54,237 bases of DNA. Origin: a virus (taxonomy: Duplodnaviria > Caudoviricetes). Positions 5,839 through 29,119 of the stretch are shown here, piece after piece. The position numbers and the translations under genes were made by a program. The notes under the pieces are model-generated. The model saw only the letters and a program-made list of their open reading frames with translations. It was not told where the DNA came from and searched no databases. The stretch is taken from IMG/VR virus record IMGVR_UViG_3300046169_000074, positions 1-54,237 of that record. One strand, given 5' to 3'. Position 1 is the first letter of the stretch, and each line of letters opens with the position of its first letter.

Positions 5839-5913
5839 ATGAAAAGAAAAGTTGAAATAAGTAAACTACTATATGTAGTAATAATGATCGTGGCTTACGC
5901 TGTATCGATCTAA
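5839..5913 (+). CDS. 24-aa hydrophobic peptide MKRKVEISKLLYVVIMIVAYAVSI
   Basis: ATG..TAA read by hand; basic N-terminus plus TM-like stretch; stop overlaps the nrdA stop. Confidence 0.45.
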   Translation: MKRKVEISKLLYVVIMIVAYAVSI

Positions 5914-7536
5914 CCTTCGCAAGAAGAACACTCTAGTATATTCCTACTAAATGCTTGTGCAGAGCTTTTACTAAATTGATAGTATAAAGTTTTAACACCT
6001 TCCTTCCAAGCATATAAATACAACTGATTAATATCTTTAGCTGGTACACTAGGATCTATCATTAAGTTTAGGCTTTGTGATTGATCTATATACTTCTGTC
6101 TTTGAGCAGCTTGTAATACTATTTCTTTAGGTGATATTTCTACAAACGACTTGAAAACTTCTTTAGTCGGAAAATTTAAATGCTGAACCGAACCATCCTT
6201 GTTTAGTATATCCTCCCAAACTTCATCTGTATTCAAACCATACTTATCTAGCTCACACTCTAAAAAGGGGTTTTTATATACTGTTTTAGACTTAGCTAAA
6301 TCCTTTACAAAGTAATTAGACTTGATAGGTTCAATACCCATACTAACTGCTCCGTGGATGAATGAGCTAGATTTAGTAGGTGCAATAGCCATTAATGTTG
6401 TGTTTGCAAAACCTTCGCGTATACATTCATATCCCTTGTATTCAGAGAGCCATTTAGAAGCCGTCTCTGATCGTTCTTTTATAGTCTTGAATATTTCATT
6501 GTTCAAAGCTTTAGCCTGCAGAGAATCAAAGTTTATTAACTTAGATTGAAACAGAGAATGGTAACCTAAAACTCCTACGCCAATAGCTCTATGCTGTGAA
6601 GCAAACCTATTAGCTCTAGCTAAACCAGGTAGCGTAGCAGATTTGACAATGAACTCATCTAAAACAGCATTTAAAAACTGAGTATATACCTCAATAGCGT
6701 CAGTGCTTTTAATTTCATCCCAGTGTAACAGGTTAATAGAACCTAAACAACACACGAAAGAGTTGAAGCTATCAGTTGGCAACTGTATTTCAGAGCATAA
6801 GTTTGAAGCTGTAATATCTAAACCTAACTCTTTGTAAGGTGAGTTATTATTAGAGTTGTCTTTAAACATTATGTATGGAAAACCAAACTCAGATCTTCGC
6901 TGAATTATCTTAGCCCAAACTTCTCTCTTCTTTTTACTACCCTTAGACATACTCTGCATCCATTCATCTGTAACGGTGATACCGTATTGTAGATTTTGAA
7001 TAGGGTTTCCTTCTGTACCAATATCCAGAAACTCTAATATATCAGCATGTTCAACAGGTAGATATACAGCACAAGCACCTCTTCTAGCCTCAGCTTGCTT
7101 AGCAAACATCGACAGTGGTATCGTACATACGAGCATAATGAACAGGTCCGTCAGCTTTACCACCAGTTGAAATAACTGTACCTCGTGGTCTTATATTTCC
7201 TAAATAAGCTGATGTTCCTCCTCCATATTTAGACATCATACCGATCTCCCTAGATGCATTTAGAATTGAATCAAGATTGTCATCAATGTTAGATCCGTAA
7301 CAACTAATTGGTAAACCTTTATTTTTACCAAAGTTTATCCACACAGGAGTAGACAAGGAGTAAAAACCCCTTGCCATATAGTCTTCAAACTTCTGAGCGA
7401 ATCCATCTATCTTTAAATGTTTCTCAGCTGTGTTAGCTATATCTTTAATTCTTTGTTCTGGTGTCTCGGTTATGTAACCTCTAGACAAGAACAGCCTGGA
7501 CTCATCATTGAGCCAATAATATTTCTTTCGTTCCAT
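5910..7536 (-). CDS. nrdA: Ribonucleotide reductase class I alpha subunit (one extra base near 7101)
   Basis: PISC, GGGTS, RRGA, SNLCSEI, CCLGS, AIAPTKSS, IDQSQSLN, KTLYY, C-terminal CSSCEG; the two ORFs join if one base is removed. Confidence 0.92.
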
Positions 7537-12811: not shown

Positions 12812-13120
12812 TTAAAATGGTAAGTCATCTTCTTGAACCGCGGCTTTTTGAGGCGCTGGTGCTTGACCATCTCTAGGTGCTGTAGCAACATTATCACCGT
12901 TAGTCCATACAACACGTACGTTACCTAAGTAAGTTTTAGCTGCTTTAGCCTCACGTTCTTCTTTGGTTTGCTCTACGCATACAGGGCCTTGATTACCGAA
13001 CTGATCAGGCTCATCGTTTAATGTAACTGTAATAGGTAGGTACTTACCTTTTTTACCGTTAATGATTTTGTCTTTAGGAATCTCATTGAGATTAATTGAC
13101 GTTTTAATAATACTTGCCAT
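12812..13120 (-). CDS. Single-stranded DNA-binding protein
   Basis: Acidic C-terminal EDDLPF tail; adjacent to the helicase. Confidence 0.7.
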   Translation of the reverse strand: MASIIKTSINLNEIPKDKIINGKKGKYLPITVTLNDEPDQFGNQGPVCVEQTKEEREAKAAKTYLGNVRVVWTNGDNVATAPRDGQAPAPQKAAVQEDDLPF

Positions 13121-13123
13121 ACT

Positions 13124-13369
13124 CTACTGTTTAATTAAGGTTACTAAATTTCTAACTTGTTCTACCGACGCACCCGTTGATCGTCTGAAGTTATCAAACT
13201 TTTTGTGATAAGGATGAAGTCCGTTACGTGAGTTTCTATTCATATAGAAGTTGTCACTGTTTGCTTTGTACTTGTTGCCTGAAATAGAACAGGTCATCAT
13301 TTTTGCTCTTGCCATTGGTTTTGGGTTTAAGAGATTAATAAAAAATTGACTTATTGATTGTTTATTCAT
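13124..13369 (-). CDS. Hypothetical protein
   Basis: 81-aa ORF directly after a class I motif. Confidence 0.6.
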   Translation of the reverse strand: MNKQSISQFFINLLNPKPMARAKMMTCSISGNKYKANSDNFYMNRNSRNGLHPYHKKFDNFRRSTGASVEQVRNLVTLIKQ

Positions 13370-13372
13370 ATA

Positions 13373-13407
13373 TATAATATCTTTAGGTAATCGTATTTAT
13401 ATTGTAA
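13373..13407 (-). promoter_or_regulatory. Class I promoter-like motif (ACRA-N7-ACGA-N8-AGATATTAT)
   Basis: TTACAATATAAATACGA-TTACCTAA-AGATATTATA. Confidence 0.75.
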
Positions 13408-14053
13408 TTAGTATTTTAAGGCTTTACTAATCAAAGGAAACTGATCTTTAAATATACTTTTAGCTTCCTTAGCAACTAACTGTATTTCTTTCTGAGCATG
13501 CTCGTCATCTCTAAGCTGTAGGAAGTGTATCCAACTTCTAATACTACCAGTCATAAATATTTTAGTTTTAGTAGTCAGCGGTAGTATCATCCTAGCTTGC
13601 TCTCTAGCTACGCCAGCGTTTAATAATTCTACATATAAAGATTTTATAGCGCCCAACATACCGTTTATAACTTCATTAGCGTTAGTTGTAGCGTGAAACC
13701 TTATAGTAGGATTAAATACCTCCGTAGATGACTGCCTATTGTCATCACACTGCTTACGTAACTCTATAGGTTCAAACATTTCATCTAACTTGTTTACATC
13801 TTGGTATCGTTGACTAAACTCTTGAAATGTAAATGATCGATGTCTTATAAGCTGTATACCTATTGCTTTGCTAGTATTTATTTCTAATGTTAAGTAGCTA
13901 TGCTCGAAAGGGGCTGAAGTGCTTATGATTGATTAAATAATTTATAAGACCCTCTGGTTTAGCTTTCTTATCCTTACGACTACTACTAACTCTAGCTATT
14001 TCGACTATATTATCTTCAGCGTTAGGTGTAACTGATTGTAGTTTCACATTCAT
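13408..14053 (-). CDS. thyx: Flavin-dependent thymidylate synthase (one extra base near 13910)
   Basis: HFSPFEH, RHRSFTFQEFSQRY (RHRx7S), EQARMILP, HAQKEI; span is 646 nt = 3n+1. Confidence 0.9.
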
Positions 14054-20285: not shown

Positions 20286-20387
20286 TAGTGCTCAAGGGTG
20301 GATTCGAACCACCACTTCCAATTACTACTTCCGTATCTACCCGCTTAGTTCATAGTTGTAGCGCTCTATCATATCAGAGTCTTGAGC
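20286..20387 (-). ncRNA. tRNA-like element A with expanded anticodon loop
   Basis: Acceptor GCTCAAG/CTTGAGC, D-like CTCT/AGAG, GCTAC/GTAGT stem around about 29 nt, T arm GGTGG-TTCGAAT-CCACC, 3' ACTA. Confidence 0.65.
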
Positions 20388-20470
20388 CGTAAGCCTTATT
20401 TCTTCTCCATTAGACAGGATTATATAGGGACCTGAATTGCGAACCTTAAAGTTTGCTTACGTAACGTTTG

Positions 20471-20617
20471 CTGTAGGGGAAGGACTCGAACCTCCACGTA
20501 GCGGTTAGCTATAGGACAAGTTGTGCACAATGGTGGTCAACCCGCTATCCTAAAGTTTATTCCGTGATCTACACCCCCGAGACAGGAGGGCACGTCTGCC
20601 AATTTCGTCACCCTACA
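20471..20617 (-). ncRNA. tRNA-like element B: GTC anticodon, Leu-type D arm, about 78-nt variable arm
   Basis: Acceptor TGTAGGG/CCCTACA, ACG-AAATTGGCAGA-CGT, CCCTC-CTGTCTC-GGGGG, GGAGG-TTCGAGT-CCTTC. Confidence 0.75.
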
Positions 20618-20755
20618 ATTAGCTTAGAATAAACCTATCTTTTTACTAATTCCTCTTGAATTTCGTTTGTATCTTTCATAATTTTACTTTATTTTGCTTA
20701 ACTTCTACTGCCGCTATAACGAATACAGCGATTATACCTGCTATATAGTATGACA

Positions 20756-22897: not shown

Positions 22898-22941
22898 TAG
22901 TGGACATGGTAGGAATCGAACCTACATTAACCATTATGCCC
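22898..22941 (-). ncRNA. tRNA-like element C (acceptor stem plus T arm only)
   Basis: GGGCATA-ATGGTTAAT-GTAGG-TTCGATT-CCTAC-CATGTCC-ACTA. Confidence 0.6.
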
Positions 22942-23054
22942 TTAAAAGCTATGTTACTCGTCAGTAACTCCATCTCCAGCGGAAGTTTCGTGGTTCCTAG
23001 TTGCACTTAGTTCCATGTCTACTACATGGTTCCAGACCTGTGAGTGTTTTAGCC

Positions 23055-23945: not shown

Positions 23946-24023
23946 TAGTGATAGCGTGAGAATCGAACTCACCAATACTCCAAGACTACCTGTTGTATAT
24001 ATTTCTGCGCCGTGTTATCACTA
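23946..24023 (-). ncRNA. tRNA-like element D (T arm plus acceptor-like stem, degenerate core)
   Basis: TAGTGATAAC/GCTATCACTA stem; GTGAG-TTCGATT-CTCAC; 3' ACTA. Confidence 0.6.
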
Positions 24024-27553: not shown

Positions 27554-29119
27554 ATGGAATACAACTTACCAAGCGAATTGGTTAAGAACTTAGACTTCGG
27601 TGATAAGGCTAAAAATAAAGTAGTCACAGGAGTTCAAAAACTTGCGAAAGCCGTAAAGTCCACGTTAGGAGCATCAGGGAAATGTGTCGTTTATGAAGAT
27701 GGACGCGGTAAACCGGTGATCACAAAAGACGGTGTAACCGTTGCGGAAAGCGTAGTCTTATACGATCCGGTTGAAAACATGGGTGCTACACTAATTAAGG
27801 AAGCGGCTCGCAATACAGTGAAAGAGGCTGGTGACGGTACAACTACCGCTACAGTACTAGCTGAAGCACTTATACAATCTATTGACTCTGCCGTCGCTGC
27901 AGGGTTATCTATCAGACAAATTAAAGATGAAGTTAACACATGTTTAGAAGAAGTTCTAAATACTCTAACTGACTCAGCTGTTGAAGTTGAAGGTGACATG
28001 CTCCAATCTGTTGCTGCTATTTCTTGTAACAACGATAAAAAGCTAGGTGGTATAATCGCTGAAGCTTACGAGACTGTTGGTAAGAACGGTGTAGTACTAA
28101 TGGAGGAGAGTGAATCTGAAGACACTTATGTAGAAGTAGTTGATGGTGCTCAGTTTGATTCTGGTATTACATCACCGCATTTTATAACTAATACTGATAA
28201 ACACACAGCGGAGTTAGACAACCCTTATGTACTAACTGTTATGTCTGAAATACCTAATATTAGAAAGATTCAAGGTGTTTTAGAGTACGTTATTAAAGCC
28301 AACCGAGCTTTACTTATTGTAGCACCCGTTGCTCAGCAGGTAAAATCGGCGCTTCTTATGAATAAGGTGAAAGGTAATATAAAAGTTAACATCGTTGACC
28401 CACCTGGATTTGGACCTACACGTAAAGATGCTTTAGAGGATATTGCTATACTAACTGGTTCTACTATCATCAATGAGGAGCTTGGCGATGATTTAGATTT
28501 AATAACACCAGATAGCTTAGGTGAAGCTGAATTTTCGGTTACCAACGATAAAAACACTGTTATAACTCTAGAAGGAATGACTCAAGAGCTTGAGGATCGT
28601 ATAGATGAACTAAACTATAAGATAACTGAAGAGCAAAATGGGTTTATCAAAGGTAAGCTTGAGCAAAGGCTAGCCACTCTTTCTGGTAGCGTTGGTATAG
28701 TTAAAGTTGGCGCTAACTCCAAAGTTGAGTTAAAAGAAAAGAAAGATAGAGTTGAAGATGCTATATACGCAACTAAAGCTGCTTTACAAGAAGGTATTGT
28801 ACCAGGTGGTGGAGTAGCACTATTAAACGTTTCTCAAAAAATTTTTTCCACCCAAGGTGGACAAGTTCTTTTATCAGCTCTAAGAGCTCCTTTTGAAACC
28901 ATATTGGATAACGCAGGGTTTGAACTTAAAGCTGATCCACAGGGAGCTGGAGTAGGTTTAGATGTAGTAACAGGGGAACAGGTTGATATGATTAACGCTG
29001 GAATTATAGATCCTGTACTAGTTACTAAGACGGCATTGAAAAACGCCACTAGCGTAGCGCTAACCGTAATGTCCGCTGATTGTGTAATTTCAAACGTCAG
29101 AGCAAATGAAAGCAATTAA
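27554..29119 (+). CDS. groEL: Chaperonin GroEL
   Basis: ITKDGVTVA, AGDGTTTATVLA, PGFG, KKDRVEDA, GIVPGGG, GIIDP. Confidence 0.97.
   Translation: MEYNLPSELVKNLDFGDKAKNKVVTGVQKLAKAVKSTLGASGKCVVYEDGRGKPVITKDGVTVAESVVLYDPVENMGATLIKEAARNTVKEAGDGTTTATVLAEALIQSIDSAVAAGLSIRQIKDEVNTCLEEVLNTLTDSAVEVEGDMLQSVAAISCNNDKKLGGIIAEAYETVGKNGVVLMEESESEDTYVEVVDGAQFDSGITSPHFITNTDKHTAELDNPYVLTVMSEIPNIRKIQGVLEYVIKANRALLIVAPVAQQVKSALLMNKVKGNIKVNIVDPPGFGPTRKDALEDIAILTGSTIINEELGDDLDLITPDSLGEAEFSVTNDKNTVITLEGMTQELEDRIDELNYKITEEQNGFIKGKLEQRLATLSGSVGIVKVGANSKVELKEKKDRVEDAIYATKAALQEGIVPGGGVALLNVSQKIFSTQGGQVLLSALRAPFETILDNAGFELKADPQGAGVGLDVVTGEQVDMINAGIIDPVLVTKTALKNATSVALTVMSADCVISNVRANESN

Follow-up and report, generated by a model that had tools for sequence, protein, structure and literature searches.

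The described RNAs that lie closest to the element reported here are the bacterial class II tRNA-Leu, the tRNA-Asp, the long-armed tRNAs whose anticodons are neither those of leucine nor those of serine, and the noncoding RNAs that imitate tRNA. Among the bases by which such molecules are recognized, A73 is a determinant for leucine, G73, G34, U35, C36, and C38 are the five strong determinants for aspartate, and the pair U1-A72 marks tRNA-Asn and tRNA-Gln for the amidotransferase (PMC9976931). The allo-tRNAs of Clostridia, Proteobacteria, and Acidobacteria have 8/4 or 9/3 acceptor/T arms, and those that combine a variable arm with G73 often carry GUC (PMC5389517); the nev-tRNAs of nematodes are variable-arm tRNAs with mismatched anticodons (PMC3333845); and the noncoding RNAs that imitate tRNA, the bacterial Y RNA among them, are in some cases encoded by phages (PMC4201824). 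A further candidate structured RNA, DNAVirus_1850, has been reported from 27 places in IMG/VR and overlaps a tRNA-Asp call of ARAGORN at one place only, with no function given to it (Fremin et al. 2023, PMC10690425).

Here we describe a tRNA-like RNA gene with a giant variable arm, found in a viral contig, together with the family to which it belongs. The RNA is real, conserved, and apparently uncharacterized, and the family is an apparently undescribed set of conserved class II tRNA-like RNAs with an enlarged variable arm, whose structure covaries, which is distributed over Bacteroidota chromosomes and phages, which a phage lineage has acquired, and which standard tRNA finders and Rfam miss. 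No published description of the family was found in the literature searched, PMC7609411 included and supplements apart. The behavior of DNAVirus_1850, compared here by description alone, would fit the giant-arm family, and the two may be the same (PMC10690425).

Organization of the element and its locus

The window, that is, the whole stretch of DNA that was analyzed, is a viral contig of 54,237 bp with a completeness rating of 84% and a G+C content of 35.7%, whose phage-type genes encode GroEL, an ATP-dependent DNA ligase, ribonucleotide reductase, a primase-helicase, ERF, and a sigma factor. The gene and its parts, given from the 5' to the 3' end of the RNA, are as follows.

20471..20617, minus strand: tRNA-like RNA gene, whole, 147 nt, with U1 at 20617 and the discriminator G73 at 20471
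20611..20617, minus strand: acceptor stem, 5' strand UGUAGGG; U1-A72 in 74/75 and G2-C71 in 75/75 aligned members, pairs 4-7 covarying
20592..20608, minus strand: D arm, 3-bp stem ACG/CGU and loop AAAUUGGCAGA; double-side changes in 2/3 stem pairs
20574..20590, minus strand: anticodon-like arm CCCUC-CUGUCUC-GGGGG; near-invariant across the family, with limited variants
20496..20573, minus strand: variable arm, whole, 78 nt
20569..20572, minus strand: V1 helix, 5' strand GUAG, pairing with CUAC at 20498-20501; 98% of cells paired
20562..20564, minus strand: V2 helix, 5' strand CGG, pairing with CCG at 20502-20504; double-side changes in 3/3 pairs
20556..20561, minus strand: internal-loop strand AAUAAA, facing CUAA at 20505-20508; conserved
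20546..20555, minus strand: V3 helix, 5' strand, pairing with 20509-20518; one U-U mismatch
20532..20543, minus strand: apical motif GGGUUGACCACC; G75-C85 near-invariant in long-armed members
20521..20530, minus strand: arm-tip palindrome UUGUGCACAA, 10 nt, perfect
20479..20495, minus strand: T arm GGAGG-UUCGAGU-CCUUC; canonical T loop, 99.2% of cells paired
20472..20478, minus strand: acceptor stem, 3' strand CCCUACA; taken from the sequence and the 75-member alignment

The 147-nt cloverleaf with intact arms, the Leu-type D arm, the CUGUCUC loop, the G discriminator, and the 78-nt variable region, all of which a sequence-only reading of this DNA had reported, can be read directly. The acceptor stem (UGUAGGG/CCCUACA) is Watson-Crick in 7/7 pairs; the D arm reads UG-ACG-AAAUUGGCAGA-CGU, with an 11-nt loop that contains GG and is class II/Leu-like; and the anticodon-like arm joins a perfect 5-bp stem to a 7-nt loop with GUC at 34-36, U37, and C38. 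A 7-bp acceptor stem, a 5-bp T stem, a UUCRANY T loop, and G18 G19 thus make up the frame of a cloverleaf, and C74 is encoded at 20470, with no CCA.

Standard annotation passes over this gene. With default settings ARAGORN reports zero tRNAs across the whole window, and with -m it reports no tmRNA there; Rfam 15 gives no match on the 147-nt element, whether its gathering threshold is applied or E<=10 allowed, so that no known family, RF00005 and the tmRNA models included, was recovered on it. When introns are allowed (-i0,120 -ps90), ARAGORN calls the element a tRNA-Asp with a 67-nt intron, a poorer reading that contains a mismatched anticodon stem and ignores the perfect CCCUC/GGGGG arm. Scans around the gene for sigma-70-type promoters and for terminators scored no higher than shuffles, Bacteroidota promoters lying outside the range of the tool. 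Further aberrant tRNA-like sequences occur near the element.

Folded as a single sequence, the RNA has a minimum free energy of -45.6 kcal/mol (z = -0.57), which 52 of 200 shuffles equal or better. Fold stability is therefore at chance level, and the case for a real RNA must rest on sequence comparison.

A family in Bacteroidota and phages

The exact 17-nt anticodon-like arm served as the key for a search of viral contigs and species-representative bacterial genomes, and it was found in at least 119 viral contigs and in at least 145 occurrences on at least 120 bacterial genome contigs. Among the viral loci listed, 115/119 have the D-arm motif before the 17-mer and the T loop and CAG after it; two of the others are truncated where the stored locus ends, one is unrelated (L131), and one differs in its 5' half (L153). 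The genomic occurrences listed show both hallmarks in 140/145 cases, the remainder consisting of two that are cut, one that is partial, and two that are unrelated. Titles are available for 80 of the at least 120 genome contigs, and 79 of these name Bacteroidota and one Kineococcus, the latter match being a chance hit. The titled carriers belong mostly to the Cytophagales (Dyadobacter, Spirosoma, Algoriphagus, Cyclobacterium, Belliella, Echinicola, Persicobacter, and others), to the Saprospiraceae and Lewinellaceae, and to the Chitinophagales. The idea that the element is a one-off chimera is contradicted by this distribution, which places it in a large family conserved in the chromosomes of Bacteroidota and in phages.

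A covariance model, R1, was built from 75 sequences comprising the window copy, other phage copies, and bacterial copies. Its score of 152.2 bits against the window copy (model positions 1-144) is high by construction, because that copy belongs to the training alignment; independent support for membership comes from 94.6% identity to one phage copy (L048) and 83% to a bacterial copy, and the window copy carries the family signature CCCUC-YNKUCYC-GGGGG with U1-A72, G2-C71, and G73. Of five named bacterial genomes searched with R1, 5/5 have between one and five copies at 100 bits or more: Persicobacter has five, in tandem, a Saprospiraceae chromosome three, Algoriphagus two, and Dyadobacter and Spirosoma a single copy each. 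The next-best matches in the named genomes score 29-57 bits, all seven of those fetched being tRNA-Leu. At E<=1e-12 the model is positive in 15/151 evenly sampled Bacteroidota genomes, so that among the genomes searched the family is confined to part of the phylum.

The blindness of standard tools extends to the relatives, with ARAGORN at default settings calling 0/118 viral and 0/118 genomic members among the matches listed and Rfam matching none of four further members at E<=1. A distant-mode blastn search of GenBank phages with the 801-nt region, the 161-nt element, and two other members returned no family match, its sole matches being T-arm stretches of 24-29 nt in mycobacteriophage and Arthrobacter phage tRNAs (E = 0.5). 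An exact 25-mer from the 3' end of the element was found in 0 viral contigs.

Comparative evidence for the structure

Two alignments bear on the structure. The first, of 68 distinct phage members, yielded with RNAalifold a consensus structure of 33 pairs, compensatory changes occurring in 21 of them and, within V3, in six of eight pairs. The second contains 75 sequences, namely the window copy with 34 further copies from phages and 40 from bacteria, chosen at random out of 53 phage and 81 bacterial sequences that have the standard 5' length, and was scored against a structure written from the window copy, that is, the cloverleaf with V1, V2, and V3. Over the 36 pairs and 2,589 cells of this structure, 92.9% are standard pairs as against 78.5% in shuffled alignments, a value that 0/500 shuffles reach, and changes on both sides are seen in 24/36 pairs. 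Because the sequences are related, the shuffle control overstates the significance of this result, and a better guide is provided by slid controls, in which the partners are shifted by 1-3 columns and pairing falls to 48-56%, and by the number of double-change pairs in each helix: 5/7 in the acceptor stem, 2/3 in the D stem, 3/4 in V1, 3/3 in V2, and 4/5 in the T stem. V3 aligns less well in this set, with 66% of cells paired, and the five pairs of the anticodon-like arm never vary, because the members were collected through the 17-mer. Across the 75 members, then, the acceptor, D, and T stems covary along with the three variable-arm helices.

This outcome sorts the pairings that had been proposed within the variable region from the sequence alone. 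GTAG/CTAC and TAGGA/TCCTA are real helices, corresponding to V1 and to part of V3, and both covary in relatives. GTTG/CAAC is indeed seen in the single-sequence fold, but the comparison leaves it unsupported, because GGGUUGACCAC is a conserved motif and CAAC belongs to the palindromic tip, and the alternative TAGCGG/CCGCTA pairing is peculiar to the window copy and receives no support from relatives. The variable region as a whole is a system of covarying helices with internal-loop sequences conserved in bacteria and phages alike, which speaks against the earlier suggestion of a removable insert.

Beyond the helices, the elbow and core bases U8, A14, A15, G18, G19, A21, U54, U55, C56, A58, and C61 are invariant, and the variable arm of the family has a conserved internal loop, AUAAA against CUAA, in which A58, A60, A62, A112, and A113 are invariant or nearly so. 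The arm itself ranges from 39 to about 140 nt, in a continuous series from 39 nt upward; most long-armed members bear an apical motif, GGG(U/G)U(U/A)GACCAC, which is missing from short-armed members (down to 108 nt total). The idea that the GUC loop pairs with the GAC of GGGUUGACCAC was considered and dropped as unsupported, members without the motif keeping the loop; such a pairing lies beyond the reach of covariation because both sequences are conserved.

Relation to tRNA-Leu, tRNA-Asp, and other tRNA-like RNAs

The body of the RNA resembles bacterial class II tRNA-Leu in its 3-bp D stem, its AAAUUGGYAGA-type loop, and its 7/5 acceptor/T arms, and also in the unpaired bases that flank the variable stem, one on its 5' side and two on its 3' side. 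Unlike tRNA-Leu, the family has G73, U1-A72, a GUC loop, a frozen anticodon-like arm, and a pyrimidine at position 37, and whereas the fetched tRNA-Leu genes measure 82-88 nt in total, its variable arm alone spans 39 to about 140 nt and contains internal loops. The best reading of this comparison is that the family derives from a tRNA-Leu-type body.

The constancy of the anticodon-like arm was judged from samples gathered without selection by the 17-mer, small ones of 34 phage arms and 17 bacterial members. In an arm-free viral scan of 39 loci, 26 have the standard arm, eight have variants that keep the pairing and UGUCUC, and five are unrelated. In the 17 bacterial members recovered with R1 the loops are UUGUCUC (seven), CUGUCUC (three), UCGUCUC (two), CUUUCUC (two, from one genome), CGGUCUC (one), CUGUCCC (one), and UUGUCCC (one), so that U33 is present in 14/17, G34 in 15/17, and U35 with C36 in 17/17, UUC replacing GUC in the two copies of that one genome. 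Position 37 is a pyrimidine and position 38 a C in all 17. The combination of U33 with a purine at 37, usual in an anticodon loop, is thus absent both from the window copy, which has U37, and from these bacterial members, and by established tRNA knowledge the pyrimidine at 37, the variable position 33, and the frozen stem sequence argue against normal decoding.

The same loop brings the family close to tRNA-Asp, with which it shares G73, G34, U35, C36, and C38; all five Asp determinants are held by the window copy, the family conserves them together with U1-A72, and its loop differs from that of the host tRNA-Asp (CUGUCAC) at position 37 alone. We infer an Asp identity for the family RNA from these marks in its sequence, and the RNA is probably aminoacylatable. 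The likeness to tRNA-Asp ends with the class II body, U1-A72 in place of G1-C72, U37 in place of a purine, and position 10, where the bacterial Asp determinant G10 is not conserved (A, U, or G in the family). The window copy itself departs from tRNA-Asp in U1-A72, A10, and a 78-nt variable arm, and carriers keep an ordinary tRNA-Asp with G1-C72 besides. The judgment that this is no ordinary tRNA-Asp, made at the outset from the sequence alone, stands: the RNA is tRNA-like, keeps its cloverleaf intact, and bears a giant variable arm that is structured. So large an arm, placed on the variable-loop side, might get in the way of a class II synthetase.

Allo-tRNAs and the nematode nev-tRNAs are similar to the family in combining a long variable arm with an anticodon that is neither Leu nor Ser, and in G73. 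Unlike the allo-tRNAs, the family has 7/5 arms in all aligned members, occurs in Bacteroidota and phages, and has one near-fixed loop rather than many anticodons, along with a far longer arm. As a noncoding imitator of tRNA, the giant-arm family is also comparable to the tRNA mimics, YrlA among them. YrlA carries its tRNA-like part internally, between ends that form a Ro-binding stem, unlike the giant-arm RNA, whose ends form the acceptor stem and which no Rfam mimic family matches. The Y-RNA-like topology that had been suggested for the element is for this reason rejected, the Rfam Y RNA and YrlA models also giving no match at E<=10; among 24 window and locus proteins scanned, no Pfam match to TROVE/Ro was found.

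Gene neighborhood, processing, and expression

The bacterial gene stands alone, with a canonical tRNA within 300 nt in 1/118 loci among the matches listed; the phage gene is found in tRNA clusters, with a canonical tRNA 300 nt or less away in 69/118 loci among the matches listed, often just 3-4 nt downstream of the preceding tRNA. In the 80 bacterial loci analyzed, a regulator of the Lrp/AsnC family lies divergently about 160 nt upstream in 43, SufB follows this regulator in 26, and an AMP-binding enzyme is found downstream in 19. The neighbor families Lrp/AsnC and SufB were confirmed on examples, and they reveal no clear functional link to the gene.

An A at -4 and at -2 is conserved in phage and bacterial copies, and no conserved upstream promoter motif beyond these two was found in 91 bacterial and 67 phage copies. 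Nearly all members have a C after G73, as the fetched tRNA-Leu genes likewise do after their discriminator, and a full CCA is encoded in 16/93 bacterial and 3/70 phage copies. The placing of phage copies within a few bases of canonical tRNAs, taken together with flanks like those of tRNA genes, suggests a tRNA-like maturation.

Of 24 public runs listed, 20, mostly seawater and viral metagenomes, contain part of a 7-kb stretch of the window; the run data are assembled contigs, and some runs have no cover over parts of this stretch. One 275-nt contig, from a run labelled as cDNA and probably DNA, is identical to 20328-20602. A 1,299-nt metatranscriptome contig from a relative of about 93% identity spans 20468-20641 with a single gap of 1 nt, and no joint crosses the arm. 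This is weak evidence that the unspliced form is present in an RNA library, as the contig is possibly DNA carry-over and is silent on ends, strand, and level.

Origin of the phage copy and its palindromic tip

Related phages were gathered through the ligase, which led to 44 loci at 57-74% identity. On these loci R1 finds no second member, its best other matches being canonical tRNA-Arg genes that score no more than 30 bits, and blastn of the element against the same 44 loci returns nothing; in the five closest relatives, searched over their full records and four of them rated 100% complete, R1 again finds no member. The copies most similar to that of the window (L048 and L135 at 94.6%, L107 at 93.2%, and L100 at 87.9% identity) belong to contigs in which no similar ligase is found, and the best bacterial copy is the one at 83%. 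Given that the relatives are without the gene and that the closest copies come from such contigs, this phage lineage acquired its copy horizontally. The copy also points to a Bacteroidota host for the phage.

The 10-nt palindrome at the tip of the arm is a feature of phage copies, being present in 42/70 distinct phage members as against 4/88 bacterial ones, and shuffles reach 10 nt in about 8% of cases. At least 13 different palindromes are found at phage tips, and their central four bases are self-complementary as well. A duplex, unlike a hairpin, needs a self-complementary centre, and the palindromic tips therefore suggest the pairing of two RNA molecules; the palindrome may instead act at the level of DNA. 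Such a device would resemble the kissing-loop dimerization sites of retroviruses. The median gain on co-folding is -15.9 kcal/mol for phage arms, -8.1 for shuffles, and -6.95 for bacterial arms, which is weak evidence, since any hairpin gains in a calculation of this type.

Proposed function and alternatives

We consider it on balance probable, judging from the comparisons above, that the element is a functional gene for a non-decoding RNA that would derive from a tRNA-Leu-type body, mature in the manner of a tRNA, and be read by an aminoacyl-tRNA-handling enzyme, the phage copy supplying the host RNA or competing with it. RNase P would cut at U1, and the CCA end would be completed after the encoded C74. 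The product would take no part in ordinary decoding, in keeping with a pyrimidine always at 37, a U33 that is not fixed, and a frozen stem; its acceptor end and loop would be read by an enzyme that handles aminoacyl-tRNA, most likely AspRS; and during infection the phage copy would supply, or compete with, the host RNA, possibly as the dimer that the palindromic tip suggests. An RNA of the same shape could, however, be a protein-binding mimic to which no amino acid is ever attached and which, as decoy or regulator, occupies an enzyme that binds tRNA (AspRS, an amidotransferase, a modification enzyme, or a tRNA-targeting nuclease), its phage form being dimeric. This possibility deserves attention, even if we regard it as unlikely, and the scaffold or decoy role first suggested from the sequence may still apply. 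Such a mimic would account for an anticodon-like stem that is frozen, unlike real tRNA stems, for the unvarying pyrimidine at 37, for the palindromic tips of phage copies, and for the retention of the gene by a phage without a canonical tRNA (ARAGORN, default settings), whereas it fits poorly with an acceptor end of chargeable type (7-bp stem, G73, and C74, with CCA in 16/93 bacterial copies), with one to five chromosomal copies at a conserved locus, which suit a housekeeping function better than defence or counter-defence, and with the bacterial loci analyzed, where no partner protein gene accompanies the family gene. A bolder reading, in which the RNA would be a non-ribosomal carrier of Asp or Asn and a scaffold on which these are made or delivered apart from translation, charged by AspRS, amidated by GatCAB by virtue of U1-A72, kept from the ribosome by pyrimidine 37 and the arm, and dimeric in the phage, appears to us highly doubtful. 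GatB is present in 15/15 carriers, but also in 126/151 of the sampled genomes overall, and the named carriers have AsnRS in 5/5, AsnA in 0/5, and AsnB above the cut-off in 2/5; such phyletic counts are at best suggestive of a link with asparagine metabolism and do not discriminate, and together with the AsnC/Lrp-type regulator upstream in 43/80 loci they leave the case for a carrier circumstantial.

That the RNA is a working decoder, whether an odd isoacceptor of tRNA-Asp or a tRNA delivering some other amino acid at GAY codons, is doubtful. Pyrimidine 37 occurs in 17/17 and U33 is lost in 3/17 of the model-found bacterial members, a canonical tRNA-Asp is also present in carriers, and the arm extends to about 140 nt, a length that, to our knowledge, no decoding tRNA approaches; a decoder would nevertheless explain why the cloverleaf and the tertiary-contact bases are intact, why most members have GUC at 34-36, and why the gene lies within phage tRNA clusters, and allo-tRNAs (PMC5389517) and nev-tRNAs (PMC3333845) provide precedents. 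That the variable region of a tRNA gene here contains an intron or small mobile insert, whose removal would give a tRNA of normal size, is very improbable. The unusual length and the 67-nt intron that ARAGORN (-i0,120 -ps90) proposes are in its favor, yet that proposal is the one with the mismatched stem that disregards CCCUC/GGGGG, the arm covaries and keeps its loop sequences in more than 200 copies, its length is continuous from 39 nt upward, and the RNA-library contig, for what this weak observation is worth, spans the arm unspliced and without a joint; we also know of no bacterial splicing system that operates at the variable-region position. A decaying pseudogene or a functionless product of recombination might be suspected where tRNA finders and Rfam miss an element and other aberrant tRNA-like sequences lie nearby, but every helix is kept by compensatory changes, the tertiary-contact bases are invariant, and members of the family occur in at least 117 viral contigs and, at a conserved locus, in Bacteroidota chromosomes, which leaves decay or accident with a negligible probability.

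Significance

If the family is as it seems, part of a major bacterial phylum and many of its phages carry a conserved and often multi-copy tRNA-shaped RNA that annotation has missed, and the family would account for one class of tRNA-like genes that are "missing" or misread in Bacteroidota and in marine or freshwater viral contigs. Because it keeps the marks by which synthetases and amidotransferases recognize their substrates without the features needed for decoding, the family is a testable candidate for a role outside ordinary translation. That phages have repeatedly captured the gene, placed it among tRNA genes, and added a self-complementary tip suggests that the RNA may be important during infection.

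Further tRNA-like elements in the window and across the phage group

The giant-armed RNA gene is accompanied in the window by three further tRNA-like elements, and comparable elements recur in the related phage loci that were collected by way of their ATP-dependent DNA ligase.

tRNA-like elements of the window and of the related phage loci
20289-20387, minus strand: element B, aberrant tRNA-like gene (acceptor stem, D arm and T arm read from the sequence)
22901-22977, minus strand: element C, degenerate tRNA-like (RF00005, 24.2 bits)
about 23949-24020, minus strand: element D, degenerate tRNA-like (T arm, and acceptor stem with 6 of 7 pairs)
Loci L002-L045, 1-5 kb upstream of the ligase, plus strand: acceptor-plus-T-arm elements (strict and relaxed scans)

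Element B follows the giant-armed RNA gene on its downstream side at a distance of 84 nt and combines a perfect acceptor stem and a perfect T arm with a D arm of 4 bp, the place of the anticodon arm being taken by 44 nt instead of 15 nt; its score against RF00005 is 26.7 bits, under the cut-off of 29 bits that was applied to it. Relatives of element B, which measure 154-212 nt, carry a large insert at the position of the D arm and show one compensatory change in the acceptor stem, are contained in two of the related phage loci (L015 and L038), and more were found on other viral contigs (6 of 13 pattern matches). Element C directly follows a 69-aa gene, a place that is occupied in some relatives by a canonical tRNA-Arg(TCT), and is called by ARAGORN, with its threshold lowered, as a TTA "stop" tRNA; element D is placed after a 76-aa gene.

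Acceptor-plus-T-arm elements of 73-244 nt are a feature of the early region of the whole phage group, with a set that changes between loci and that comprises at least five distinguishable sequence families. The strict scan of the loci returned about 20 such elements on the gene strand versus 1 on the other strand, and the relaxed scan 134 versus 42.

Protein-coding genes of the window

5910-7536, minus strand: ribonucleotide reductase large subunit, two overlapping ORFs (profile matches)
12812-13779, minus strand: region with a ThyX-type thymidylate synthase match in a 123-aa ORF (profile match)
27554-29119, plus strand: phage-encoded GroEL-type chaperonin (sequence comparison)

The two reductase ORFs correspond to the N-terminal part (145 aa) and the barrel (417 aa) of the large subunit, and the ThyX-type match spans the C-terminal half of the profile only; these ORFs may represent split genes, frameshifts, or intervening elements. 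The chaperonin shares about 40% identity with its counterparts in Flavobacterium, Cellulophaga, Vibrio, and other phages.

Variation within the giant-armed family

The chromosome of Persicobacter diffluens (L226) bears five almost identical copies of the giant-armed gene, arranged in tandem with a period of 172 nt. In some members of the family (viral loci L060, L075, L084, L097, L127, and others) the D loop is interrupted by an additional hairpin, about 20-30 nt in length, and some bacterial members have additional hairpins within the variable arm; the giant-armed scaffold therefore accommodates insertions at defined points.
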